A DNA stretch of 64,000 nt from Cystobasidiomycetes sp. EMM_F5 (taxonomy: Eukaryota): positions 620,001 through 684,000 of the forward strand of contig JBPGPT010000003.1 in NCBI GenBank assembly GCA_051047955.1. Reading direction: 5' to 3'. The position numbers and the translations under genes were made by a program. The notes beneath the pieces are model-generated. The model did not search any database. It saw only the letters and a list, made by a program, of their open reading frames with translations, and was not told the origin of the DNA. Below, piece after piece: positions 8,714 through 57,438 of this stretch (positions are counted from its first letter, which is position 1; each line of letters begins with the position of its first letter).

Positions 8714-9820
8714 TGAGGCTGGATGCATGCTCAGTACTATTCTGTAACTGTGTTCATGACAGGAGTGTCTAGTGCAGAACTGTTGTATCCGCATCTGGTA
8801 CAAGGTTTATCGCAGTACCGCAAATATGCTCATGGTATCAGCCGTTTTTACTGCAGCGATGCTCTGTCTACTTTGGTTCAGCCTGATTGGGCCAGCTATG
8901 GAGCACTGGACAGAGTGTGGCCGGACCGCCCAGCATTGCTCGAAAAAAAGTGGGGAAGAGTCGAAGATGGACAACGCAACTCTCAATTGGTCAAATATTG
9001 CACTGCGGATGTCGTACCTATAGCCACCTCCACCTGCGTTTGCAACGCTTGTCATCAGGAAGCCGCTAAATGTGGCCAACTCCCGGACCGTTGGAACGGT
9101 CTTCTACGGGCAGGGACTGCGATCCATTCCAGCTCAAAAAAAGAAAGAAGCTGGATCTGGGAAAGGAGATTGCCGGCATTGTCAGCAACGCCAGTCGAAA
9201 CAGGGCTTTGCCAGATGTCGAGGATTCTGAGGCACGGCCATTCTCTTGAGCATTAATATTCATTCCGGTTGTCGGACTACAACATGAGAAGCTTTGGAAG
9301 AGGGTGTCGGAGTGTGCTCGTGCTCAGACGTTGTGAGAAGGATTCTCGACAGTGGAGACATTACGCAAGCCGTACAGGCAATGTCACCAGAAGCACAAAG
9401 TCCTGTGCACGGACGTACTGGGAGCATATGTGAACAGCACAAAGGGGGATGAAGAGGGAAAACCGGACTGTGAGAATCGCTGAAGCCTTAGGATGTCATG
9501 AGGATTCTGGCTGCATCCCATTGACCCGGCACGGCAACACTCAATGCAGCTGCCGTGCAGTGGCCATAATTTGCTACGCCCTTAGATAATAGTGCCGCAG
9601 CTTTCGGCGAAGTTTTGCGCGCCTTGAACCCTTCCTGTCGTTTTCAGCGCGCTTGCAACTGGAAGCGGACGCTTCACGGACATCGAAGACTGCAAGCAGT
9701 CCGCATATATCGGTCAGACTACGCCTGCTTCGACGTGTGAGTGTCGTAATTCGTCTCATTGCGGAAATCCACTCATCGTGATGCAGTGCTTAGCGCTGCC
9801 TGTCCCGTTATTCGTGGAAA

Positions 9821-12340
9821 ATGTCGGGCTTCCTACCGAACAGCTACCCCTTGGCAAGACACCGCGACTCGTCGAACCAGCGGCACAGAGGCACCGTGAC
9901 TGCGCGAGAAACGCCCACAGGGCTGTCTTCTCTGCTGCACCCAACCTCTTCATTGTCAAGACCGTCACAGCCTTTATATAATCTTCCTTCGCTTGCCTCA
10001 GGACTGGGGCCCCAAAAATCGGATATTAGTCGTGATGCATGGGACGATGACTTTCCGAATAACCTGCGAAGCAGTGATTCAAGCATTGCACGGTACACTC
10101 TTCCCTCTTTCTCACCATCGCGGGCGAATGCGAGGTCACTGCCAAGCTTGAACTTCTCCGACACTGGCGTGAACTCATCCTCGTTGAGGACTCCATCTAC
10201 GATGTCGTCACCGTATACGACCTCTACTTCGAATGGGCGATTTGCGTGTCGATGCGGTAAGGAGCATTGGGTCCGTCTAGCGTTCCATCAAACGCTGACA
10301 TATTCATCCAGGACACGACGGCACTCGCGGCTTGTCCCTTCTGACATGTCAGCTTTGTTATGGTCAACACCATCTGACATGTGTGCTGGACACAGGAGTA
10401 CGAGCGGAGGCTGCTTTCCTCTGCACAGACTGCAGACTCTTTGCACCAAGTTCGAGCGCCACGGGATCTTCACGCGCCGCAAGCTCCTCAAGATCGGGCT
10501 ACCAGAGCTTCTCGCCCGGCTTCTCCTCTTATTCGCTGCCAGTGCCGCGAGATTCCTTTCCTCGCTTCCGAGACTTTAATAGCGAGGCGAGCACGCGCAG
10601 ACAAGCGTCAGATACCCGGAATCTGGCATACACCGGCTTGACGGATTACTCCCAGCTTGGTCTGCCATTAGTTTCGCAGATTGGCAGCAGTCTACCGTCC
10701 TTCGGAGCTTCTTCCGCATTGCCCAGGCTTGGAGATCCGTACGACGCATTACCTCTTGCAACTGCAAGTCGACAGCGACGCCCTAGCCATTCTTCGTCGA
10801 ATTTCCGTGACCCCACTCAAGAAGGCCTTCGCGGCGATAGCAGCAGATGCACTAAGTCTGACTTTGCTTTGCCTGCCACAAGCGTTGGCAATCCTTCGTG
10901 GTCTTTGACCAACACAGCTGAGCCGGAGGTACAAGATAGAGATGCCATCTTCTTCGCACATGCCGACCAATTTACAAAGTATGCAAAGGATGCTCTTTTC
11001 AGGAGCCATCCACTTGCACCCTTTGAGCAGAAGAATACGTCCGTAGTTGCAATGAATGAAACGAGGTGAGATTACCACTACTAATGGCGATGTTTGTTGG
11101 CAGGGCAAACCTCATCACCGTCACATGTAGAAATCACCGAGCAGTGCGTGAGAGAGTATCGCATTTGATATCTGCAAAAGCTGACTCCGATTCTGCCTGT
11201 GATGCTACTCGCGCAGCCTTACTCGCAGCAGCGTGGCACACATTGTCCATGGGAGATGCAAGCCGAGAGACTTCACAGTAATGGCAGCAAGGCACTCCGT
11301 CTCTTGCCTTCCAAGGTCATTTCGCAGCATAATGATGCCTGTTTGTGGAAGCTTTCCAATCCGAAGCGTCCAATGACCGAGAACCCGCACTGGGCGGCTA
11401 TACAGCTGCACGATAGTAGCGGTCCGAGTGTGTCGGCACCAGCAGCCAGCAAATCGTCGTCAAATTCCTACTTCTTCTCCAGGCCTGCAGATGCACCTCA
11501 TTATAGCGCTCACGCTCTGCCAGATGCAACTCTGCAGGACAAGGCGCTGATGACGGAGCCAGGTGATGCAGTATCATACCTATCAGATCGTCCACAGGTC
11601 GTTACAGTGACACGAGGCAGTCGTGGTCGCAAATTCGAACCCCGATGCCTTGGCGCTCGGACCCAATCTCAAAAGACCAGTGGTCTTTACAAAAGTCCGA
11701 TGATCCGCAACCATTCAAAGGTGAAGATGCTGGGTGGTATACGTGCTCAGCGTACGGTCAGATGCCTTGACAGTGCTCCGTATTGCCCGCCAAAGCGTAG
11801 GTATACCACATTGCCAAGTGACCTTGTCGACAAAGTGCAGATGGAGGTGCGTCTTTCGTTCCGATCGTCCACCAGTTCCATTCAGCTGAGGGGTTCTCGC
11901 CTCTTCAGACTGAGGGAATTGAAACAGTACCAGCATGTACTCGAGAGGGTCACAATGTCCCGCGCGCAGCCGAATCGTTACCAACCCATGAGCTTCACTG
12001 CCAGCAGCTAGCAAATGAAAGCTCTTGGTTCGACGATGTCGACATTGTAGATGAATCGGATACGGATTGGGCTTCGGATTCCGATGCCGTACGCTGCAGC
12101 GTTCCTCATTATCGGCAGCTTCCTCGCGGCATGGGATCCAAGTTACACTTTGTGGAGGGTCTGCTGTCGAGCGACTCGGACACCGACAGCTGCACGTCTA
12201 CGAACATCTTCCCAGTGTCCGACATGCGAACGACTGCCGCAGAGGCCAGTGGCGAACACTCCAGCATTCGCCAAAAACGTAAGGAATGGCTGCGAGACTT
12301 CGGTCATCCTTCCAGATCAAAACGATGGGTGGAAGAGTAG
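9821..12340 (+). CDS. PHD finger plus WRKY/GCM1-like (MULE-type) DNA-binding domain protein, paralog A
   Basis: Intron 10257-10311 creates CRC-x12-CQLC-x4-HLTC-x13-CTDC (C4HC3). Introns 11066-11103 and ~11144-11216 create ITVTCRNHRA-PYSQQRGTHCPWEMQA...HND. Probable last intron 11847-11908 and stop at 12338-12340. Confidence 0.7.
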
Positions 12341-13488
12341 GTGAAGGCAGTATGATGATTCTCCTCACTCCAGTTCGAAAACGTCACATGACGGTTTTCC
12401 GGAAGCTCCGTTCATTGTTTGTCGTCTCGTTCTTTCTTTCGCAATTCTGATCGTTTGAGGTTCTTGCCATCCATTGCGACTGGCGAAAACCTACATTCTT
12501 AGCTGTTGGTCGTTCGAGTATAGAAGCCTTCAAACTCCGCTAGTACGGAAAACCAAAGAAAGCCATTGTAGACGGTAACCAGCCACTGCTGAGACCTATG
12601 ATTAATGCGGATAAGCCTGTTAGGGTCTAGGATTCCTGGTGACAGGTCTGCGCCAAGTTGAATAACCGTTTCAGTGGGCCGTCAGTTTGAAACCCCGACA
12701 ACAGCAGCAGCACAATCCGCATAGGTCAGGATTCAGAGGAGCAGATAGCTTTTAGGCAGACTATTGGTGTCTGATACCAACGCGCATACTAGCCTTCTCT
12801 TCCCAGCTTGATCCATACGCCTATTTGCGAGTTCGCACCATCTTCCGAGTTCGCCAGCGATTCATAAGGCCAAGCTTGCACAAAAACTGCAGCTGAAACG
12901 AGCAGATGTGACATTCTCAACATTCAGTACTGGTGAGCATAGACAGCGTAGCGTTGCATCGTGATAAAGCTAAGAAACATCGGTCGTCATGGCCAGGGCA
13001 TACAATGTGGCGTTGAAATATAGACAAGCAAGCAAGCGCAAAGCCATGCCACGACAGTGGGCGTATCTTTGAGGCTGTGGTCTACTCTCGTTCTCTGCAC
13101 CTTTACACTCGCACGCGACAACTAGTGCAGCCGGCCGCGACAGCGATGGAACAGCCGTTATGGACTATGCACGCTACTGCACTCCATCATTCCGAAGCTT
13201 CTCTTTTCCAAAATTCTTCACTTGCGTCTGGACATCCTGTGTGTTTCTTCTCTTTCATGCTCTGCAGAGACGAACATAGGCTTACCTCGTATGAAGCAGA
13301 TACTTGACGCGCCTTTCAGTAACAAAATCTGGTGGCAGTGATGACACCGGCCTTCCAACAGATTCTGCTCGTAAGTGAGAGAATAACGTAACTTAAGCAC
13401 ATATTGAGCGTTCGATTGCAACACATCAGATATTCATGCCACGTCTGCCTGTTTACCGCAAGAAGAACTCCTCTCCGGTTCTGTATTG

Positions 13489-14843
13489 ATGCCTTGTCCA
13501 CATCCACAATCAGCGACATCTGTTTCCAGGGCGTTGGCCGTTGGATCCCTGAATCAAAGCGTGCCCGTTTCGTTTCCAGTCTCTGATGCAGGATCGACCC
13601 TCTATTTCGCTTCTGCCACCGACTTTAGCAGATATGCGAAGGACGCGCTGCTCCAGAGTCATCCGCTTGCGCCAATCGAGCAACACAACACGTCCGTGAC
13701 TCTCAATGCTAAGTCTTCGCGGCTGATGATCCGAGACTCATCCATTACAGAACGAAAGCAATCACGGTGACTTGCAGAAACCATCGAGCAGTACGTCACA
13801 GTCAGCTCATCCAGACGTCGGCTGACCTAGTCAGCGTTCTCCTCTCTCGCAGCCGTATTCCCAGCAGCGAGGTACCCATTGCCCCTGGGAAATGCAGGCG
13901 GAGCGAATCTCCGGCAGTGGCGGCAAGACACTCCGGTTGCTATCGTCCAAAGTCGTGCCGTATCACAATGAAGCTTGCATCTGAAAATTAGCAAATCCAG
14001 GTCGTCCGTGGGATGAAAACCCCCACAGAACGACGTGGCAATCCTGGGCCATCGCTGATTGTCAGGCGACATTCCCATACAATGCTGAGATTTCACTGAA
14101 AGTCAAAGAAGAGGATAAGCTGGTGATGCCTCCGCCAGACGCGCAACCTGGTCGAGGTCGGAAATTTCAACCTCGCTGCCTTGCTTCGCAATTCAAAGCA
14201 GGATTGAGACGCAATGAACGGACTGCATACCCTCCATACAGCCGCCCAGAGTCTACACACATCACTAGACCTACTGTGCTGCGCAAAGCGGACCCAGACG
14301 ATTGTAAGTGTGTCGTCCGGCCGGCAAGAGGAGAGGAAAAGGTGGAGAAGCTGGCTGCATACAGGATTCGCGTTAAGATTGAAGACAAGGAAACACCGAG
14401 TAATATCGTTAAGGCTGAGGATGGAATAGAGCCTTCTTTATCGCTGAAAGCGATCTATCGTCGCTCAAGTAAAATGCCGCCGAAGCAGCTCCCAGGGACC
14501 ACGGCAGCCTTGGCGAACACCCCCTTTCTTCAACTCTTTACGTACGGCGAGAGTGTCACACGGCCTTCACGCTCGGGAGCATGATGATGGCTTGGTAGTG
14601 TCAGAAGCTTGTCACTCGTCCGGCGAACCCGTTGCGTGCACGACGTCTGCTATCGATGAAGCTCTGGCACGTCGCAGTGTTCCATATTATCAGGACCTGT
14701 CCTCCGCGGTCGCTCCGGTCGCAGACATTTCCTGCCGACGTTCAACGGGGCCTCTCCCGCGCAATGTCGCTGGCGCAATGAGAAATTTTCCACTGTCAAT
14801 GCTGCGTTCGACTATCGCCGTGGCGGAAGTACGGAAACGATAG
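13489..14843 (+). pseudogene. Paralog B of the WRKY/GCM1-like protein, no PHD seen, interrupted by one in-frame TGA (13982-13984); ends approximate
   Basis: Near-identical blocks to paralog A: YAKDALLQSHPLAPIEQHNTSV, ITVTCRNHRA, PYSQQRGTHCPWEMQAER and GRKFQPRCL. Same intron positions. TGA aligns with TGG of paralog A and the frame stays open to 14584. Confidence 0.6.
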
Positions 14844-35702: not shown

Positions 35703-37629
35703 ATGAATCTGAGCATCGGCCTCGACACGAGCGGCATGACTGGCGAGCGAGAAGTCGAGCGGTGAGCTGGTGTCTGCCTGTGCCAGTCCTGCAAGTGCTG
35801 AGTGATATTTCCCTCATAGCCGGACGCTCCTGTTGCTGGCAGCCGGTACAACGCTGTACTCGCTCGTGGCATTTGTAACTCTGAGAGGCCTGCTAGGGTT
35901 TGAAGAGGACGATGATCCCGACGACGACATGACAGACGACCTCCTGCATGTCAGTGTCGTCTGCTCGCGAGTCTGGTTCATGGCTAGCTGTTTCCTCGGA
36001 TTCGTGGCAATCAAGGGCGTCCTACAGGTATGCAAGACGTGCTGTTGCTCTTTATTGACACTTACTGACTCGTGCCTTCTCTTCGTGTACTGCCTTGATC
36101 TATATCTATGCATCTTTTTTTGGCTCGCTCCCTTTTGTGTGCCTGTCTGCACCGGATATTCCGGACGACGCCTGGCTCAACAGACGCATCTGCCCTCATT
36201 GCGCTTTTTTGCATTACACGCTATCGTCGACACGATTCTATGCGGACTCGTTGCAATACTATTTGCACTCACCGCCTTTTCAGCAAACACTTTGGTATCT
36301 TCGCAACTTGGCCATGCATTCTGCGAGCACGTCAGCAAAGGTCACAGCTTTTTGGGTTTTGTGACATCTCCAGGTAGCGGCATGGAGAATTGTGAGGAAA
36401 AGTGGCTATACGGTATCGCTCCGATCATCATGCTATGCGCGTCGGGAGCCTTCTGCATCCGCGCAAAGACTGCACGAGCCGTGTGGGATTACTATCAACG
36501 TGCTCTGACGGAAGGCAAGATCTCTCTGGACTCACCGAGCACATCGTCGGTGTCGTCGTCTACATTCTCGCATTCGAGCAGCAGTACATTACACGTAGAT
36601 AACCTAGGCCAGGCAGCAAACTATCCATATTCTCGAGCATCAAGGTCGAGGAAGAAACGTTCCGGGACAGGCAGCTCCAGTGGTTCCTCCAATGGCACCG
36701 GTGGCCGAACGATATCACACTCCAGATCATCGTCCACTTCCACTGTACGGCCGTTCCTAGCGGCCGGTACAGCCAGTCGGATCATGCTCCTACCTTCCGA
36801 CTATGCAAATCCTGGATATCCAATCGAAAAGTCGAGTGGACAAGCCTCATCGCCCATTTCGCCACGGTCAGGCAAATCCTCCTCTTCCGAATCCTTCGAC
36901 ACGATTAGAGGGCCTCATCCTCTGCATCCACAAGGATTATCTGCGCATACTACATTGTCTTCCAGTAACACTTATCCTGCTCCACCGATACCTTCTCTCT
37001 CGCACCATCAATCTCAGTACCAACAGGCCGCCGCTTCTCACTTCACTCCAAATCCAAGCACGTCCCCGCCCGCGCTAGAAACACACCTAGCTCCTGCTCA
37101 TTCTCGTAAGAGGTCCATGTCCTACGATAGTGGATCTACTCCACACCCTAAAGTCGTTGTGTACGCTCCAATCTTGATGAGCATAGAGGAGGCGCAAAGT
37201 CTTGGTGGCAGGGAAGCACTCATTGGGAACGCTCAAGCTAAGGCACAGGCCAAGGCGCAAGCGCAAGCCAACAAAGCTCAGGTCTATGCGCAGGCTAGTG
37301 GTAGCGCTACTGCTCTCAGCTCGGCGAGATATCGAAATACCTCGCCTGCTCAAGGGCAGTCCAGCTCCAGCAAAGATGCTCTACATCATTCGGTCTATAC
37401 GACATATTCGCCTCAGCCGTATATGAGTATCGCTCAGCCTCATGTACCGCCGAGAAAGCATCATTCCGAAGATCGACCGCGGTCGTCTACGATGTACAGC
37501 CCATCGATAACACCACTACAACAATATCATCAGTCACACGCCACTCACCATCAATCTTCCGCGTTACGAAGCTTTAGAGACGAAAGTGCCACGGAAATGT
37601 CCACGATGACCTCGCACAAGTACCAATGA
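35703..37629 (+). CDS. Hypothetical membrane protein (several N-terminal TM segments, long S/P/H-rich tail)
   Basis: ATG 35703, intron ~35762-35819 in frame with ORF 35833-37629. Probable second intron 36028-36183. Hydrophobic segments with a luminal Cys pair (FCEH...NCEE). Confidence 0.7.
37231..37269 (+). repeat. Coding low-complexity repeat AQAKAQAKAQAQA
   Basis: Imperfect 12-nt repeat units in frame within the 35703-37629 gene. Confidence 0.6.
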
Positions 37630-46143: not shown

Positions 46144-48547
46144 ATGCCGTGGTTGGACTCCTTGAAAGCCCTCTTTGGTCGCAACAGAGGGAATGCGGAA
46201 CACAAGTCGACATCAGCGGGTACGTCAGAATTCCAGCACAAAGCCTTGCGAGTATCGGGTGAAGCGATTGTGAACAGATCGACAGTCAGATAAAGTGGGC
46301 GATGCATTCAGACGAATGTTCAGTAATACTCCTTCACAATCGAGTAGCTCGACAGCAGCGCAGCATATCCACAAGCCAACAGCTGGAAGATTGAATTTTG
46401 GGATTTCGACGACCACATTCTTCATTTTCGTCTACGTATTGGTCATTGAAGGGTGGCTGATAAGCAATTCCGTGACGGCTTCGCAAGACCTTTCCGATAA
46501 GGCTGCACCGTCGTCAGCATCTGTCCGATCAAGTATACTTCCAATTCAGCCTACAGCATCAGCCGCACACGTGACAGATGTGTCTGTCATATGGTCGAAT
46601 GTCGAAGAACTAGATCCCGTTGTAAGCGCTCGCCATGCATCTTTCATGCTTGTGGTATTCGCTCAAACTCGGATGCCGCTCCGCAGGCGGCGGCCGATCA
46701 AAGCTTACCAACGCCCTCTCCGAAGACGCGGCTTAAGTCTAGCAGATCTATCAGCAAAAGCGCCCCGACGTTTCGTGAATTGCAGGTCAAGTGCCTGTAC
46801 ATCAAAGGTAGCAGAGTTCCAACAACGTGAGACCGTTTTATATCGTCTGCAAGTCAAATTTGAGGATTCTTTACGACAGTGGCGGAGGTCTTGCGGTCGG
46901 CATCACGGTTATGTACGATGTTTGGATCATTCTCTTTATTCTGGCGGTCATCCTTTACGAGCATAGGCGCCTGAGGTTCGACCGGTGTATGCATTCAGCA
47001 ACAGTTGTGTGAGTTAAGCATAAGGTGTGACAAGGAGAACGGGCTGAGAAGTAATCCGCTTGAAGAGGGATGCTGGAAATTTGGCTGTGAGCCTCACGTC
47101 CAGGCAAAAGACGAAGGTGTTGATGTTACATCCTTAACGGGCAGGGCTAGTTCAATTTTAACCAGAGGAGTCGAAATTCAACTTCAATTGGCAGCTGCCC
47201 TCCTGGTCCTCGCTGCTTTGCCAAACTTATGGTACGGCTTCCCGGAAACGTATCGTAACCGTAAGAGGCTTCTTGCATTGTTTTCATCGCGTACAGGCTG
47301 GCCAGGTGTGCAATCGGGACCCACATATCCATCAAAACCTCGATCCGCTGTGACGATTCAGCCTGTGCAGCCGTCGGATGGTACGGCTGTGCCTCCAGCG
47401 GCGGCAGCAGCCGCAGCACCCAGCTCGTCAACCGATCAAACCTCCGCCCCAGCTGCAGGAGCTGCGCCTGCTGCCGTGACAGTACAGCCCACTCGCCAAG
47501 AAGCTGAAATTGCGCTGCCAGAAGTGGATGTGCGTTATCCAGTTCCATTTGGATGATTGCGATTTGACAAAACCATCTGTGATGTAGCTCAAGCCGGCTG
47601 ATGAGGTGCCAGCATACGTCTACGACCGAAGTCTTCTGACTGGCCTAAGTAGGCTGAACTACGATATCGAGCGACACCCCCGTTCCGCTAAAGGCGTATA
47701 ATATCTGTTCTGCAGGTGATGAGGAGATCAAGAGGCGGTTTGGCGAGATTCCAGATGCAGGTACGTGAACATAGCGCGGACTGACCGACACTAAGACATG
47801 ACCACTCGCAATGCGAATCACATCCGCATCGACGCGACGCCTATCCTTGGAAAATGATGTACTGCATTTAACGATTCTGGTTGCCGAATCGATTTCATGT
47901 GTGCTGCAGTCAGGAAGGGTGAGCGGGAGGATGTGATTACAAGAAGAGCTGCCACTCGCGCTGATACTATACTGTGCCACTTCCTCACTCGCAGCCATCC
48001 CTGGAGGCGTTATGTCGTATACCAACCGCCCATTGACCATGCAAGAGATGATGTACAAAGTATGCCATTAATCCGGTCGCAACGAAAAAGGGCTGACCAA
48101 CTTCCCGCCGACTCCAGGCCATGTTCGACACTTCTGGCGGAGGTGCTGGCGACAGCGCTAGAGATGGGAAGGCTGCAGGAACTGGCGGGATGAATCTGGA
48201 TCGTATGATGATGGCAAGTCGTGTCTACATATTTTCTTGGACCCGGCTAATATAGCTCAATAGATGATGGTACCTCCGTGCTGTCTCCAATCCTGCAGAT
48301 CATCTTCTGATACATGTTCTTTGGACAGATGATGAATAACATGACTGGAGGCAATGTCTTTGGACAAGCTGCGCCGCAGCAACCTGGACGCACCATGAAC
48401 CCTTTCGGCCCTTTAAGTCAACAGAACCCGTATGCTTCTGGGGGCTATGGTCCCAACCCGTACGGCAGTGCGGTTGGCAGAGACACTGCTCTCTCCCGTC
48501 TCCTGCAACGGGAAGCCGCTAAAGAAGCGGGCTACACAGGATTCTGA
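46144..48547 (+). CDS. Orphan ~4-TM membrane protein with Gly/Met-rich tail, tandem copy 1
   Basis: Multi-exon. MPWLDSLK..., HKPTAGRLNFG-TM1, CLY..GS, TM2-YEHRRLRFDR, GMLEIWLAS..RGVEIQLQLAAALL..PNLWYG, PAYVYD, EEIKRRFGEIP-VRK-AIPGG, LTMQEMMYK and DTALSRLLQREAAK. Confidence 0.8.
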
Positions 48548-49032
48548 AACATCGTGTGCGGCCTGCTATAGTACTCAGCGCGAGCCGATGGCGGTGCAAT
48601 CCGCATCAGATTACGCTCGCCTGAAAAGGCGATGGTGTTCGAAACGAAGGTATACAACACCGTTACCGGTCACAGCTCTATGCGAAGTATGATTAGTGAT
48701 ACTGAGCTCCGTCAACCTGATATTTGCGATTGACTGTGCCGCGCTATTTTGACTTACTTACTGAGTCTTGTCTAGGATTTTACATTGTCGTTATGCTTAC
48801 CTCACGCGTGCTAGGGCATACACAACTTCATTTGTAGTCGCGATGAAGGATGTCTACTGAAAGGGAAGACGCGTCAAGGCAGTGCTAATGCAGACAAGAC
48901 CGTCACAATGTATGACAAAGACAGTAATCGCAGTAGTCGCAGTAGTCTGAACAAGCAGGATCGAGGCGGCTTGTCTCCTACAGTATCGGTACCTTTTCTT
49001 ACATTCTAATAACACAAGTCTTGACCTCAGCG

Positions 49033-51534
49033 ATGGCGAACAACCCTGCCACGAGTGTCCCTGGTCCCGAAAATCCCTCCACTGCGTCATCAGCACAACC
49101 TAGTAGGTCGGATGCCAGTATTTGGAAGGTGTGTCAGCACTAAGTAATTTCCCCTTGCCTGCCTTCTGTGTCAGGTCATTCGGCTTCAAGCCTACTGACA
49201 CGATTCTTCAGCAATTCAAAAGCCCAACAGACCGCTGTAACCAATGCACACAAGCCAACCCCTGGAACTGTCAACTTCGGCATTACAACGGGCACATTCC
49301 TGATCCTAGTTTATGTACTAGCAATCGAGTTTTGGCTGATTGTGCATTCTGCCCAAAGTTTCAGCGGCAAAATCGAGATGCGAAGCCAGTCGTCTCAAGA
49401 CGCACGAATCGGTGGTTCGCTGTCAAATTCAACACAGACGCTGTATAATTCTTCGACATCGCGAACAGCGACGCAGCCAGTGACCAGTGGGGAGACGACC
49501 GAAGTGGTCTTCTATGCTATGCACGAACCTACGAGCGACCTCCGTCTCAGGAAGGCACCGCGTCAGAAGAGGATGGACACACAGCCGAGACAAGACCCTG
49601 AGTCGCGCCTCAAGCATAGGTCGCTCAGCAAGCCAAATTCAGCGTTTCAAGCAAAGAATCCAATGTGCCTTTATCACGAGGGGTCACAGCTTCCAAATGC
49701 GTCAGTCTGGCAACAGACACTCGCTGCTATGACTGACGAGCTTCGGCAGTGGTGGATCAACAGCTCTTGCAGTATGCATTCTGTACGATGTCTGGATAGT
49801 GATCTTCGTCTTGGCAGTCCTTGCGTATGAACACAAGCGATTAAGGTTCGACCGGAGAACGCACTCGGCATCAGTTCTGTGAGCATCTGACAGAGACATA
49901 ACATCGACTTGCGTCTGACTGAGCCTTTACTGCCATGTTGGTCAGGGGTTTAATGGAGTTTTGGCTGTAAGATCGATGCTCGGAGCCGCAGAGCAATGCT
50001 GATAGCATGACCTCACAGTGCGAGCGACATTCTTGTCAGAGGCGTTGAGGTGCAACTGCAATTAGCTGCAGCCTTACTCATCTTAGCAGCGTTTCCGAAT
50101 TTGTGGTACGGCCTGCCTGAAACATATCGACAGCGCGAAAAGCTTTTCGCGCTTTTGCTGGCTCGAGCAGATTGGGCAACGGGCAGACCCGGCGCTACAG
50201 GCTCGGGAACACCTGGCCCTTCTGGCCCAGGAGCACTGGCTGGACCGCTAGGTGGGGCTGGGGTTGGCGCTACCGCTACCGCTGCCGCTACCGGTACTGC
50301 GCCAGGCGGTTCCACAGGCGCCGCTGCATCAGCGCCTGGCGGAGCACCTGGTGCACCCGCGGGTGGACTGTCTGGTCCACCGCCTGTAGCTCCCGTAGCT
50401 CCGCCAATCGTTCTGCCGGAGAAAGATGTGGGTGTAGTCTTGCTGAGGTTGCATATCGTACAAGCTCAATTTCACTATCCTAAAGCTTGTCGCCGCTGAC
50501 GACTTACCTGCATGGGTATTCGATAGTTCGGTAGGGGATGGGTTGAGTGAGTTCACGCGCCTTTGCTGCCGATCTGAGCTGAATCAAGTGTTATGGTCAG
50601 GCGGTGAAGAGATTAAAGCGCGCTTTGGCGAAATCCCGGAACATGGTCTGTTCACTCATACGTCTGCTGCCGTCTGTTGTGCTTTTGCTAATCTACCGAT
50701 TCTTGTACTTATTTTCGCTGCATCAACAAAATACGTGGCCGTCTCGCACGCTTCCCTCCCATCAACCACTGTCGCTCACTTCGTTCCACGATACTGCGTA
50801 TGGTACATACCGTCGGCGTTCCGCTCTCAACCGTATTGGATTGCTTTGTGCAAATCTGCTTTGCTAATGCAGTAAGAAAGGGTAAATGCCTCGTCTATGC
50901 TACAAAGTTCTCAAGCTAATTTCCCTCTTCCCCTTTTCTCCCTGTAGCCATTCCAGGTGGCTTGCCCGATCCGCGTCATCGACAATTGACTATGCAAGAG
51001 ATGATGTGGAAAACTCTGTTCGACCAGCAACAAGGCACAGGTTCCGGAGGCAGTGGGACAGCCAGCGCAGGGGGATCGGGCGGTGGAATGATGGATCGTA
51101 TGATGGTGGTGAGCATCTCGTCAGCCAAGCGCAGATTTTCGTCAGCTGTCGCCAGCCGTTTTCATTTCACGTACTTTCCGTCAGCTGAATGTCCTTTCCC
51201 GTCCTGCAGATGATAATGATGAACATGATGGGCGGAATGAGTGCGCCAGGTGGAACTGGGGGAATGATGCAGCCGCGGGAGCAACCGGTTGTGGCTTCGA
51301 CGAGCATGCAAACAGGCCTGCCTCTGCAAAACGCCTATGGTTTAGGCGGATACAGTCAAAACCCGGTCAGTGCATATATGCATGCAAGCGAGTACGACGT
51401 CGCTAACTGACAATCTTTCCCACGATCCTTACGGCCACGCACAGTACGGTAACGGGGCCACGGCTGGTGGAGACTCTGCTTTAGCGCGACTGATGCAGCG
51501 CGAAGCTGCCAGAAATGCAATGTTTCAGCAGTGA
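49033..51534 (+). CDS. Orphan ~4-TM membrane protein, tandem copy 2 (start approximate)
   Basis: Same motif order and mostly the same splice phases as copy 1. Ends DSALARLMQREAARNAMFQQ*. Confidence 0.8.
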
Positions 51535-52357
51535 CATGACATTCAAGCCCCTGTATGTAGTATCCGGATGGAAATGCACGTTGTCGGTACTAGAGTTCAC
51601 CCGATATGTATCAGTCACCATTTGATATTCGCATCTGTCATCCGCTCCGCAAGGCTGCATGACCCGTATGCATTGCTTTTCAGTGCGTGCAAGTCATGTG
51701 GAACGAGTAGCTCTGCGCTGCATGCTTGATGATCTTATTTACCACATCTCGTCGACCCGCTGAGACAGTGCATTCAGGAGAGATGCATATGGCGATATGA
51801 CCTATCTACATGATGGCAACCGTGACGCCCGCAGTACTCGAAGCTGTTGCTGGAAATGGGGTCCGACTTGTGGCATTGGGTCTGTCTGCCATCGCAGCTG
51901 CATGGAGTACCAGACTCGACCTACTCTTCACGGAATCCGATGAACGCTAAACTAACGGCGAATGGCACTGATACTTAGTCCAGCATCCTAATAGGCAAAC
52001 ACCGAGCGGCTCCATGAGTGCTGCCGCTGTTCGCAACCATCGCGGGGGCAGCGATGCATGGATATGTCTCGAGAGATGACAACAAAGCATGATAGTACTG
52101 CATGGCTCAAGCAAGTCAAGGAACAATCCTCGTTCTCCCCTAACCACATGTCCTGGTCTCTGGCGGGTGAGCCGTATGAGCCTGCGCTTGGGATGAACGT
52201 GCCTCCCGCGAGCCATGGAGCAACAGTTGCGGCGGTGTTTTCTGGGAGACAGCTCGGCGCTGCTTACAGCAGCCTGAGTAGGGAGCCATCAAGCGGCGCG
52301 TTACCTATACAGGACACCGTCAGCTTGTCATAGACCAGGAGATCCCGGTTTTGCGGG

Positions 52358-54934
52358 ATGGCGTGGCTGGACTGGCTGAGGGGCAAGTATGGACGAGATG
52401 CAGGGACTTCGCCCAATGCGGTCACCAGCCCTACTACATCTACCGCAAACCCCGCTGCATCATCCAGCGCACAGGCATCTAGTATGTTAATGGCCGAGAC
52501 TCCAGGCACGCGTCTCGTTTAGCACTGACGCTTACTTATAAGGCAATACGAGCCCGAGCCTTCTAACGCAGTTTTTTAGCAATGCGCAACCTCCACAGAC
52601 CGCTGGAACGAATACTCACAAGCCAACCTCTGGGACTGTCAACTTCGTCGTCACAATAACGACATTTTTTATTTTTATTTACGTGCTGGCAATCGAGATC
52701 TGGCTAATAGTCAATTCTGCTCAAAGTGCAAACGGCAGCATTGAGGTCCGTAGCCGGTCTTCGCAAGCGTCGCAAGCAGGAGCAACAACGTCTAGAACAC
52801 ATTCGCAAGCTCTGTATTCTTTTTCAATCACAAAAACGGACACCAAGTGGTCGCAGGAGACCAAGTATAGTGACAAGACGTCTGACATTGTGTTTTATGC
52901 CCTGCCCGAATCCACTACAGAAGTGGGCGTGAAAAGAGCGAGACGAGCCACTAGCCTTGCCGTAACACCAGTGGCAGCGGCTACTGCGTCACGCCATCAA
53001 CACAGAGCACTCAGCAAGCCAAATTCTGCATTTCAAGAGAAGGTTCCGACATGCCTCTACCATCCGGGATCACAACTGCCAAACGCGTCAGTTTAGGGAA
53101 GGTTCTAACTTCTGTGACTGACATGCTCCTACAGTGGCGGAGGAACGGCTCTGGCAGTATGCATTCTGTACGATGTCTGGATTGTGGTTTTCATTTTGTC
53201 AGTCATGGCGTATGAGCAGAAGCGACTGCGGTATGATCGGAGTACGCACTCGGCTTCGGTTGTGTGAGTTGTCGTCCTCAAGTGGAAAGCTCGTAGTAGC
53301 TGACTCGCCCGTACGGCAAAAGGGGTCTAATGGAGTTCTGGCTGTAAGGTCTGAACTGCAAGCGCAAGCCCAATGGCTGAGCACATCATCACCCAACAGA
53401 GCTAGTGACGTTCTCGTGAGAGGCGTCGAGGTGCAACTCCAATTAGCCGCAATCTTGCTCATTTTAACAGCGCTTCCGAATTTGTGGTACGGCTTACCCG
53501 AAACATATCGGCAACGGGACAAGCTGTTCGCGCTTCTGCTTGCTCGAGCAGACTGGGCAACGAGCAGACCTGGGGCTGTAGGTCCGGGTCTGCCTGGCCC
53601 TTCCGGTCCAGGAGCATCCGCTGCGCAAACGGGTGCACCCCCTGCTGGGGCTCCTGCTCCTGCTTCTGGGGCGGCCCCGGGTGCCGTGCCACCGCAAGCA
53701 TCCGGCGGACCCCCTGGTGCAACCGCGGGCGCGCCGCCTGGTCTAGCACCCACAGCGCCTGCAGCTCCGCCAATCGTTCTGCCAGAGAAAGATGTTGGTG
53801 TAGTCTCACTTACAACGCTTACTTCAATACTGATCAAGAGCTTATCTGCAGCTAATCGCGACCAACGACCTGCCAGCATACGTATATGATACTTCATTAC
53901 TAACTGGCTTGAGTCAGTCAACTGCACGCTCATACCGTCGAGCCGTACTCAAGTCAGATTCTACGAACAGGCGGTGCGGAAATCAAAGAACGCTTCGGAG
54001 AAATACCCGAAGAAGGTGCGTTGCCTTCCGTTGTTCGATGACGACTAGCCTTCTTTAGTGTCTTTCGCTAAAAGTTCTCTTCCTGCATGTGCGCCCACCC
54101 GATCCCGTGATTTCGTTCACGCACACTTCGATGCACCAAACCACTTTACAATCTATGGGCCGTTGGTGGATCTTCCTCGATGCCCGCGGGCTGTTCCGAA
54201 CGGCGCTTGAACTCGCCCCCAATGTTACGCGTATACACCTCCTGGGCATACACAGTTCGAAAAGGTGGGCATGCGGCTGAAACACCGTCAGGATGAGAAA
54301 ACGCCTGACCGCGCACCCCTCTCCTTTTTCTCTCCTTCAGCATTGCCTGGCGGAATTCCTGATTATCGCAATCGGCAATTGACGATGGAGGAAATGATGT
54401 ACAAAGCTATGTTCGATTCTGGCGGCGGAGCTTCAGGCGGAGCCAGTGGAGGAACTGGTGCAGGTACAGGCGGGGGTGCTGTTTCAGGTGGTGGGGGCAT
54501 GGATCGTATGATGATGGTACGTGTCGCTCTAACTGCGCTAGGTTCAGCACCTGGCAGGCTGCAATTTGCCTTTTCCGCGGCTCTATAGCATACAATCGCT
54601 AACACTTGTCATACAGATGATGATGATGCAGCAAATGTTCGGGGGAGGCGCATTCGGCAGTAAAGGCGGCATGATGCAACAGCAGCAACCTCCTGGACCA
54701 AGCGGCAGTATGTCGGCCTTCCCACAACAGAACGCATATGGTCCAGGCGGATACGCTCAGAACCTGGTCGGTTCATTGAAAATACAGCATAGCATGCTAT
54801 AAATTCTGATATTAATATCGCAGAATGCTACCCAATTGGGCACTGGGCCATTGGCTGGAGGAGATTCTGCTCTAGCGAGACTTATGCAAAAAGAAGCTGC
54901 CAAAAACGCCTTACAACAGCAATTCGGGGTCTGA
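52358..54934 (+). CDS. Orphan ~4-TM membrane protein, tandem copy 3
   Basis: Starts MAWLDWLRGKYGRD, similar to the copy 1 start. Same motifs. Ends DSALARLMQKEAAKNALQQQFGV*. Confidence 0.8.
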
Positions 54935-55258: not shown

Positions 55259-57438
55259 CTACTGCTCGTCGTCTAATTCTAGCCAACTTTGGCTTTGCGA
55301 CATTGGTACATTCCGTGCGTTACGGCAACCAGATAGTTGCGCTGGTTGCGACAACAGTTCTCGGCTTTGCCGCTCATGCCTGATCCACTGCCGGGTGTGT
55401 TGACTTGCTTTGCGCACAATCGTCGGTAATGGCGGTACGAAGGAAGAAGCTTCGGACTGTCTATCAGCTTCTGCAGCTGCTTCCGTCGTTGTGTAAGAGA
55501 CGACAGAAGGTGCTCGTGGAAAAGTCGGCTCGCTGCGTTTTGTTCTGGCGGGTGGCGGCGTGGCCGTGTACGCTGTATGGTCAGTCATTGGCCCACCGAA
55601 TGTCGAAAGCGCTTGCAGCGGTATTTTCTCTTTGAACATAGTCGATGCTGACCTCTTGCTCATTGCAGACCTCGGTGTTCCTGGCGTGCTGGGCACCGCT
55701 CTTGGCATGCTGAAGGAGAGGTATACGTAGAATCCTACCGCGACGCCCGTCGGTACAGCGTAACACCATAATGACAATGTGTAGACAACGAAAACGATAG
55801 TCACGGTGTCCCAATCTGGGATCATACGGTATATGACAGCTGCGCTTGCTGGAATGAGCTACTACATCGCGGCTTAGGATAATCTGAACCTACAGCAGCC
55901 AATTATGAAGGCAACCAACCCCATCCACGCGAGGTTCGTAAACACAGATAACTCCGTTCGAATTCGGGCCAATTTTTTGGCTCGCGTCAGAGGGAATTCC
56001 GGAATGGATATATGGCCCGCAAGGCGATTCGCGCGATGTGCAAGACCAGTAGGTACCGGTTCGAGCCTCTCGGCGGAATCCTTTGCGAACCGAACTGTTA
56101 CTGGCACACTTCCGTTGCAATTATGGCACACAACGGTCGCTGTCTGAGCAAGGTACTTGTCGAAGTTCGGAGACTGCTGGTAGCCGTCCTTTTGCACTTT
56201 GCTTGTATTGGCCCTACGGTCGCGCCCTGTCGAAGCATGATCGTTTGGTGCAGTGTGCCCGATGTGCTGGCTTCCTGCTCGAAAATAGTCCTCTGCCGCC
56301 CTGATCTACATTGTTGTTAGTCAGCTGACGCAGGCCATCATGGTTCATGAAAATATCTCAATCCACTTACGAGACTAGAAATCTGCTGATTGAGCAGACT
56401 AAACAGCTTCCAGCCGACGGTGAATGATACGACAGCATACACGACCGAGAGCGATACCCAGACTAGAAGCTGTACGCGAAGCGCATGAGTCGCTCGTTCA
56501 TTCTCGACCAAGAGAAGTTGCGCTTGCGGAAGTAAGGATGTAAGGGCTGGAAAACCAGCAGACGTGACCGATGGCAGATTCAGATATTCAAGCATCGTCG
56601 CCATGGTGGCGTCTGCGCGGTTGAGCCAGTAGTCATTGATAATCGGCGCTACCATGATGCCAGCTGTCACTAAGATGAGCCATACACAAAACAAAGTTGT
56701 TCCGAAGACCCTGGCGTCGACTGCGGCGCCTTTCTTTCTAAAGAAGAATCGCATGACTTTATTCTCAAAACCCTAATCTTAAGTATTTTAGCAGGTCCTT
56801 CAGCTCGCACGTCTGTTAGTCTTAGGAACTCACCACTGGCAAAGATCGATAGTACGAAAACAAATTCACTGAAAACATTGCTGAAATGATGACGAAGCTA
56901 CGAATTCGTCACAGTCAGCCACAAAGGTCTGTCTGCGCCATCCTCAGCATCCACCCACCAGCTGAGTTGGAAAGCGGCACTTCCACGTAGATATTGCCCT
57001 GTTGACTGCTGATGAAGGAGTAAGGCGGAATAAATGATAGCCGTCGTGGAGTATGCGGCCAAGAATCTGATCCAAATCTCCGTTAGTATTGTGGACAAGC
57101 TCGAGAATTTGGCTACTGACAATTGCACCATCACAGTTGAGTTGAGACGTGTTGTGTCCTGGTGTTGCCGAGTCAACCAGAAGTGTCCATTGCGTCTGCG
57201 GAAGTCGGTTGCAACAATGATACAAATTATAATACTACAGGAGTCGCAGGCAGGGTGAGCAAGTTGTCAAACTGTAGCAGCAGACAAGAGGCACTCACAA
57301 TGAATGCAGAACGATTCCAGAAATGACATTTGCGTAAAAGCGCATAGGCTGAGAGGGCATCCTTTGTGCCTCCAGGAATCGCGTTAGCCACGCGACTGGA
57401 TCTTGCTGCTGCGCGAGCATCGAAATCAAGGCATCCAT
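55259..57438 (-). CDS. Orphan multi-pass (~7 TM) membrane protein
   Basis: ATG 57438 (MDALISMLAQQQDPVAWL...), TM1 followed by RRRNGHFWL, further hydrophobic ORF segments at 56898-57176, 56338-56754, ~55900 and ~55750, a long polar loop before the last two TMs, and an S/P-rich tail. Internal exon boundaries are only partly resolved. Confidence 0.7.

Follow-up and report, generated by a model that had tools for sequence, protein, structure and literature searches.

In proteins of the Sur7/PalI family (PF06687), a large loop separates helices 1 and 2, and the tail is long. A comparable layout, with three or four passes, is predicted for the products of three tandem genes, here called A, B, and C, which lie at positions 46144 to 54934 of the window, a 64,000-nt stretch (positions 620,001 to 684,000, forward strand) of contig JBPGPT010000003.1 from Cystobasidiomycetes sp. 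EMM_F5 (assembly GCA_051047955.1; 18.3 Mb, 253 contigs). All coordinates below are positions in the window. The sequences indicate that the three genes represent a real, intact, and unnamed family for which membership in a known family is not detectable, and that the likeness to tetraspan scaffolds is one of layout only.

The differences from the described families should be noted. According to PMC7178836, Sur7/PalI proteins have three or four helices and a long loop with at least two Cys residues in a conserved motif. In contrast, the loops of A, B, C, and the full-length relative P0008 (CAD6582543.1, 611 aa, labeled by NCBI as a hypothetical protein of Cyphobasidiales sp., a lichen yeast) contain one Cys each (4/4) and no W-x-x-C. 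PF06687 has five matches in the genome, none on the contig of the locus, and none in P0008. The four helices with polar residues also recall the fungal tetraspanins Pls1, Tsp2, and Tsp3 (PF00335). PMC2278132 describes Tsp2 as having long tails and as multi-copy in basidiomycetes, and gives as the tetraspanin hallmark a large loop between the third and fourth helices with CCG and two further Cys residues. In A–C and P0008, however, the large loop lies between the first and second helices (H1 and H2), there is no loop between the third and fourth (H3 and H4), CCG is absent from all four full-length proteins, and each protein has only one or two Cys residues. PF00335 has one weak genome match, on another contig, and none in P0008 at E ≤ 10. 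The MARVEL/Nce102 (PF01284) and DUF7598 (PF24535) families are likewise fungal multi-pass proteins; PF01284 has three matches in the genome, none on the contig of the locus, and none in P0008. For Nce102, a preprint shows that some of the four predicted helices may not span the membrane (bioRxiv 10.1101/2022.01.03.474785).

Gene models of the three copies

The initial annotation of the window described three same-strand, intron-rich genes with open spliced frames, and the models agree with this description. The exon boundaries were placed by hand after three-frame translation, and the following are predicted splice models.

46144..48547, + strand: gene A, the most divergent copy, open frame, 13 exons, 527 aa, 2404 bp; exons 1–7 at 46144-46219, 46290-46621, 46687-46826, 46880-47008, 47066-47086, 47145-47529, and 47588-47648; exons 8–13 at 47716-47760, 47910-47918, 47995-48059, 48118-48213, 48264-48269, and 48329-48547
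49033..51534, + strand: gene B, open frame, 11 exons, 558 aa, 2502 bp; exons 1–6 at 49033-49102, 49175-49700, 49750-49878, 49946-49966, 50019-50427, and 50486-50546; exons 7–11 at 50601-50645, 50873-50881, 50948-51108, 51210-51365, and 51445-51534
52358..54934, + strand: gene C, open frame, 11 exons, 587 aa, 2577 bp; exons 1–6 at 52358-52481, 52543-53086, 53135-53263, 53323-53343, 53400-53793, and 53852-53912; exons 7–11 at 53971-54015, 54256-54264, 54341-54516, 54617-54766, and 54824-54934

The counts of 13, 11, and 11 exons correct the earlier estimate of about 10–12. Each spliced frame has one terminal stop and neither an internal stop nor a frameshift, and all the motifs listed earlier, from the first helix to the terminal helix, are found in the three proteins in the order originally given. 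With a median length of 59 nt, the 32 introns start with GT in 31 cases and with GC in one; all 32 end with AG, and a branch-like motif is present in 24. Nine intron positions, identical in alignment column and phase in A, B, and C, flank micro-exons of 21 nt and 9 nt. Gene A has three introns of its own, and B and C have one tail intron in common. When three different single exons are used as queries against the own genome, exactly the A, B, and C loci are found each time, and P0008 gives eight matches, all within the three genes (both are lower bounds). The triplicated gene set is genuine and lies well outside what chance would produce.

Public annotation of the locus, as far as found, consists of P0001 and P0002, single-exon fragments with intron read-through; P0001 (NCBI label Cystobasidiomycetes) matches gene C. 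This class label and the short introns with fungal branch sites agree with a basidiomycete yeast of the Pucciniomycotina. Gene finders are probably misled here by micro-exons of 21, 9, and possibly 6 nt, and annotation of the family in related genomes is probably incomplete. The notion that the copies are decaying duplicates or a modelling artefact is hardly credible. In its favor, the splice models were built by hand, A requires a putative GC-AG intron and a putative 6-nt micro-exon, and P0001 covers one exon; nevertheless, the frames of all copies are intact despite saturated synonymous sites, and the independent full-length homologue P0008 follows the same spliced sequence.

Several details of the gene structures are described here for completeness. 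The intron 5′ of the 9-nt micro-exon is 149 nt long in A (47761-47909), 227 nt in B (50646-50872), and 240 nt in C (54016-54255), compared with the median of 59 nt, and may be a candidate site of elements controlling micro-exon inclusion. In gene A, a predicted GC-AG intron is followed by a putative 6-nt micro-exon encoding Met-Met (48214-48269). The intron of gene B at 50547-50600 is 54 nt long, in frame, and stop-free, and could be retained to give 18 extra residues in the module described below. A 91-codon open reading frame (52058-52333, + strand) shares the frame of gene C and stops 24 nt short of its start; it is possibly an upstream open reading frame or a product of chance. A short helix-like segment rich in Trp and basic residues is found at the N-terminus of A (46144-46185), C (52358-52395), and P0008; its lack in B could alter the targeting of that copy.

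Conserved parts of the protein and relatives in other fungi

The proteins are divided into the following parts, all on the + strand.

49273..49344 in B (A 46391-46462, C 52641-52712): H1, the first transmembrane helix, with conserved Glu and Trp at the helix end
49345..49700 in B: variable Ser/Thr-rich loop, presumably on the exoplasmic side
49666-49674 in B (A 46792-46800, C 53052-53060): Cys-Leu-Tyr motif, the conserved end of the loop
49757..49825 in B (A 46887-46955, C 53142-53210): H2, followed by a basic stretch with 4–6 Lys/Arg per 12 residues
49862..50034 in B (A 46992-47160, C 53247-53415): H3, a marginal helix, encoded in B by three exons including the 21-nt micro-exon 49946-49966
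50047..50109 in B (A 47173-47235, C 53428-53490): H4, ending in an N-L-x-Y-G-x-P cap common to most relatives
50179..50421 in B (approximate): Pro/Ala/Gly low-complexity linker, 47–74% Pro+Ala+Gly in A–C
50425..51021 in B (A 47527-48126, C 53791-54411): the "cytosolic module" of the initial annotation, containing the 9-nt micro-exon
51022..51534 in B: Gly/Met/Gln-rich tail, with a Met-rich helix at 51088-51230 and the terminal helix at 51478-51516

A profile of the H4 exon compared with 1.84 billion representatives gives 10 matches at E ≤ 0.001. Two are from this locus, and the eight found elsewhere are P0008 and seven unnamed fragments (95–265 aa) from ENA or Logan assemblies. The best blastp alignment of gene B with P0008 shows 33% identity over 290 columns (E 2e-36), and gene C shares 50% identity with P0008 over 113 core residues (E 3e-31). 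P0008 keeps the part order of the spliced models, and the residues of the 21-nt micro-exon align with P0008 and with P0010, a fragment that covers H2 to H4 in one piece. Because both are colinear with the spliced sequence, they independently support the core of the splice model.

Conservation was counted in the numbering of B, first in A–C and then with P0008 added. In the core (residues 186–302), 66 of the 117 positions are invariant in A–C and 43 are also kept in P0008. The corresponding counts are 18 and 9 of 33 for H1, 34 and 13 of 64 for the module (384–447), 11 and 2 of 23 for the terminal helix, and 9 and 3 of 103 for the loop. Judged by these counts, the membrane core defines the family, whereas the module and the terminal helix appear to be conserved largely among the three paralogues; a caveat is that the C-terminus of P0008 was predicted automatically and could be in error. 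The earlier proposal of a conserved cytosolic module and terminal helix therefore holds mainly among A–C, and in P0008 both are mostly lost. P0008 differs from A–C in its longer loop and in the loss of PAY/WVYD, EIKxRFGEIP, and the terminal DxALxRL, but it is a true homologue with the same part order and a Gly/Met-rich tail.

A word-based protein search gave 2 fitting sequences among 1336 candidates, both from this locus, and two further searches among the candidates listed gave 1/7999 and 1/8000, both P0008, which is a weak negative for other full-length members. Pattern scans of metagenomes confirmed 0/87 and 0/144 matches. The named members placed so far are from Cystobasidiomycetes only, in which at least one further order also carries relatives. 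Restriction to the class is not established because seven of the eight outside relatives have no taxon. The family was first described as an orphan and lineage-specific; it still has no named counterpart, but it is wider than one genome.

To our knowledge, the structures of cystosomes and nanometre fusion pores are known from microscopy only. It is improbable that the family is a class-specific, tail-clustered part of such cell contacts, that is, of the septal-pore plug (cystosome) or of the nanometre fusion pore of mycoparasitic haustoria. The class of the named members is consistent with this role, as is the description of septal pores with cystosomes and of nanometre-fusion mycoparasitism for Cystobasidiales in PMC4777780. 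The same source gives Erythrobasidiales and Naohideales as lacking cystosomes (PMC4777780), and the seven relatives without taxon also speak against a class-specific part. There is similarly little likelihood that the proteins form a new oligomeric pore or pore-plug, with an undescribed membrane fold, that builds the cystosome septal plug or the mycoparasitic fusion pore, in which the Gly/Met tail would condense and the paralogues would mix.

Searches for a known family or fold

No known family was recognised at the outset, and the searches against Pfam, the PDB by sequence, and fold databases likewise give no assignment. Pfam gives no family for P0008 at E ≤ 10 and none for 14 core rows at E ≤ 1, and the exons and fragments show nothing near the cut-off. 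The core profile has one PDB match by sequence (E 0.7), and nine other matches are to the Gly-rich stretch only. Foldseek with the P0008 models gives no match at E ≤ 0.001. The VIA-align fold search finds no match at Z ≥ 8 and only generic two-helix hairpins and coiled coils, the best being a generic hairpin (Z 7.7, root-mean-square deviation 3.7 over 81 residues, 5% identity). Since the predicted template modelling scores (pTM) of the models are below 0.3, the fold searches neither exclude a known fold nor show a new one. With regard to a claudin-like fold, a four-helix bundle with an outer beta sheet, the models predict a four-strand meander in the loop but do not pack the helices reliably (pTM 0.26–0.27).

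In the ESM Atlas, no match reaches 0.9; the sole lead is DUF7598 (PF24535), with a score of 0.81 and 165/256 features. This lead did not hold up: the single PF24535 match of the genome lies on another contig and the reciprocal profile gives E about 7.5. All genome matches to PF04145, PF06687, PF01284, PF24535, and PF00335 lie on contigs other than that of the locus, and 11 genome loci of Ctr, Sur7, MARVEL, and DUF7598 show only background against the family profiles (best E about 2). A likeness to Orai channels, seen by eye, was dropped, since neither P0008 nor the core rows have a Pfam match. No paper on the family was found, and none with the locus tag or accession of P0008, in a literature search whose scope left out supplements and most subscription papers.

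Selection and duplication history

Pairwise protein identities are 44% for A–B, 45% for A–C, and 64% for B–C. Nonsynonymous (dN) and synonymous (dS) rates were obtained as Nei-Gojobori counts on the hand-built models. For the B–C pair, the membrane core gives dN 0.086 and dS 0.83 (dN/dS 0.10), the post-linker module 0.23 and 1.47 (0.16), the Pro/Ala/Gly linker 0.35 and 0.87, and the whole protein 0.27 and 1.22 (0.22). Between A and either B or C, synonymous sites are saturated, with a proportion of synonymous differences (pS) of 0.73–0.75. These values indicate that purifying selection acts on all three copies, as had been proposed from the conserved blocks.

The loop should be treated with care, since its alignment is uncertain. 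Its B–C counts (dN 0.53, dS 2.14) suggest that it changes by relaxed constraint, and the extracellular loops earlier described as diversified would thus have drifted. Diversifying or positive selection in the loop is rejected at this resolution. The introns have diverged overall, as first stated, but B and C keep some similarity: 4 of 10 introns show residual similarity at z ≥ 2.5, and blastn gives 72% identity over 852 nt of DNA, introns included.

A tree was built from 11 rows of the 54-column H4 block. It separates A, B, C, and the fragment P0003 from the remaining seven rows with support of 98/98; for A+B+C alone the support is only 46/0, and P0003 forms a long branch. On the basis of this short block, the triplication is probably later than the split from the P0008 lineage. 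The comparisons suggest that A separated from B/C first and B from C second, giving B and C as the younger pair, and that the tandem triplication is local, with variants that would differ mainly in the loop and the linker.

Membrane topology and proposed role

Helices were assessed on the Kyte-Doolittle (KD) scale with a 19-residue cut-off of 1.4 and by the best 18-mer values. H1 (1.9–2.3), H2 (2.1–2.7), and H4 (1.6–2.1) are clearly hydrophobic. Only three helices pass the cut-off, and H3 is marginal, with 1.43 in A–C, 0.85 in P0008, and 1.17 in P0010. The hydrophobic moment of H3, however, is 0.03–0.08 in five of five sequences (0.03–0.06 in A–C), that is, the helix is hydrophobic on all faces, and a buried helix therefore fits better than a surface, soluble, or coiled-coil helix. 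By the positive-inside rule, basic flanks lie on the cytosolic side of membrane helices. The 12 residues after H2 contain 4–6 Lys/Arg against 1–2 Asp/Glu, and the 20 residues after H4 contain 4–5 against 1–2, so that an even number of crossings between H2 and H4 is favored. The likeliest topology would be one with four passes, in which the loop faces outward and both termini are cytosolic. A layout with four passes or with a re-entrant H3–H4 hairpin is probable, and one with three passes is a lesser but substantial possibility. The four-helix layout given initially is thus kept as the likeliest by flanking charge, hydropathy, and moment, while H3 is marginal and both AlphaFold models draw three. 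Predicted helix topology can mislead, as a preprint describes for Nce102 and Vps68 (bioRxiv 10.1101/2022.01.03.474785).

The loop and the tail differ clearly in composition. The loops of the four full-length proteins (A, B, C, and P0008) contain 24–28% Ser+Thr, and N-glycosylation sequons are found in three of the four (B, C, and P0008). Lys-Arg pairs are also found in the loops of B, C, and P0008; this is a weak sign, and dibasic pairs are present elsewhere too. The tails are rich in Gly, Met, and Gln with 9–14% Ser+Thr, and Met makes up 10–14% of the tail in all four proteins. In P0008, the tail composition is kept and the terminal motif is not; its Met residues are scattered within Gly repeats, and the poly-Met run is not kept.

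By analogy, our preferred, though tentative, explanation is a four-pass family that serves as a membrane scaffold or organises microdomains, as Sur7- and claudin-type tetraspans do. The N-terminus would be cytosolic and H1 would run outward to a glycosylated loop of about 100–150 residues, outside or luminal, serving as a spacer or wall contact. H2 would return inward to a short basic cytosolic turn, followed by a tight H3–H4 hairpin and a long disordered cytosolic tail. The conserved polar residues of H2–H4 (Tyr, Glu, Arg, His, Gln, and Asn) would hold the helical bundle together or connect neighboring subunits laterally, and the Met-rich helix in the Gly-rich tail may be a sticker of low affinity through which the protein clusters and cytosolic partners are recruited. 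From the anatomy and the constraint, which are demonstrated above, we infer the location, oligomer state, and partners.

The following observations weigh against this explanation. The word scaffold reflects the architecture only, because no homology to Sur7, MARVEL, or tetraspanin is detected. The loop of gene A lacks a sequon, and one sequon each is found in the tails of A, C, and P0008, which are placed in the cytosol here. H3 carries one or two charged residues, with the low KD value in P0008 given above, and the segment from H2 to H4 is nearly charge-balanced (5–7 Lys/Arg against 4–5 Asp/Glu). In both AlphaFold models of P0008, a single unbroken helix covers H3 and H4 (304–339 in one and 298–367 in the other), which would give three passes. 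Upstream 6–8-mers common to A, B, and C show no excess over shuffles, that is, no common upstream motif, and the gene neighbors give no functional hint.

The AlphaFold results bear most directly on a three-pass protein, in which H2 and H4 would pair in the membrane and the residues between them would form a long, salt-bridged helical hairpin that projects from it, with the loop and the C-terminal tail on the same side, for membrane shaping or tethering. The two runs used alignments of 10 and 12 mostly fragmentary rows, and the models have low confidence (pTM 0.27 and 0.26). Both show a long hairpin with H2 in the region 260–340, where the local predicted distance-difference score (pLDDT) is mostly 70–92, a four-strand beta meander in the loop, and a helix at 507–521 in the tail. 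The hairpin matches the generic two-helix hairpins of the fold search, and the balanced charges of the H2–H4 segment and the three helices above the hydropathy cut-off also agree with three passes. On the other hand, the low pTM, the uniform hydrophobicity of H3, unlike a soluble hairpin helix, and the placement of a sequon-bearing Ser/Thr-rich loop and a Gly/Met/Gln-rich tail on one side despite their different compositions make this protein a rather doubtful alternative.

The polar residues of the core also bear on function. The invariant residues in or near the helices are, in B numbering, E75, Y211, E226, H237, E246, R256, E259, Q261, Q263, and N276, and those of H2–H4 could line the conduit of a channel or small-solute pore in a homo- or hetero-oligomer gated or clustered by the tail. 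The marginal H3 with its buried charges, and the constraint, which is strongest in the core, fit such a channel. However, the moment of H3 near zero gives no clear polar face, no Pfam channel family is found for P0008 (E ≤ 10) or the 14 core rows (E ≤ 1), and helix-packing contacts explain the polar residues equally well. We regard the channel as unlikely.

The Met-rich tail, once suggested to bind Cu(I), raises the question of copper handling by a protein related to or like the Ctr transporters (PF04145), which also have a Met-rich low-complexity region and three clear helices. Apart from the Met content of the tail, the end of H2 resembles, by eye, the first helix of the genome's own Ctr. 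The Ctr hallmarks are MxxxM within a transmembrane helix and N-terminal Met motifs (PMC6981102). In A–C and P0008, by contrast, the Met-rich part is C-terminal, the N-termini contain 1–3% Met and no Met motif, and every MxxxM lies beyond residue 414, in the module or tail, and none in H1–H4. PF04145 matches two other contigs and not this locus, the genome Ctr loci reach E about 2 at best against the family profile, and P0008 retains Met only in scattered form. The Cu(I)-binding suggestion accordingly finds no support, and a copper role seems very unlikely.

Neighboring sequence

The surrounding genes and open frames are as follows.

Upstream: a cyclin-like gene
Downstream: genes for a multi-pass protein that Pfam does not match, a proteasome subunit, and a UPF0203 protein
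About 55260-57300, − strand: convergent neighbor; its several exons encode roughly six or seven hydrophobic segments and a tail rich in Ser and Pro
35806-37629, + strand: open frame of 607 codons encoding several hydrophobic segments and a long tail rich in Ser, Pro, and His
About 9794-12340 and 13408-14843: regions with short peptide blocks in common by eye (for example in frames 10299-11069 and 13408-13770)

The convergent neighbor is possibly a receptor-like multi-pass protein; the two exons compared with Pfam give no match. The frame at 35806-37629 looks by eye like another multi-pass protein with a disordered tail, and it has no significant match to the profiles of the A–C family. The common blocks at 9794-12340 and 13408-14843 suggest another diverged tandem pair.

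Implications for the family

Fungi commonly carry lineage-restricted membrane genes in tandem. The present models define a fungal membrane-protein family that has no name and has escaped public annotation, and together with the residues invariant across orders they make topology, localisation, and mutagenesis directly testable. The importance of the family would be high only if it turns out to be a new channel or to belong to the septal or fusion structures of the class. If the pore or pore-plug reading were true, these proteins would provide the first molecular handle on the cystosome or on the nanometre-fusion structures.

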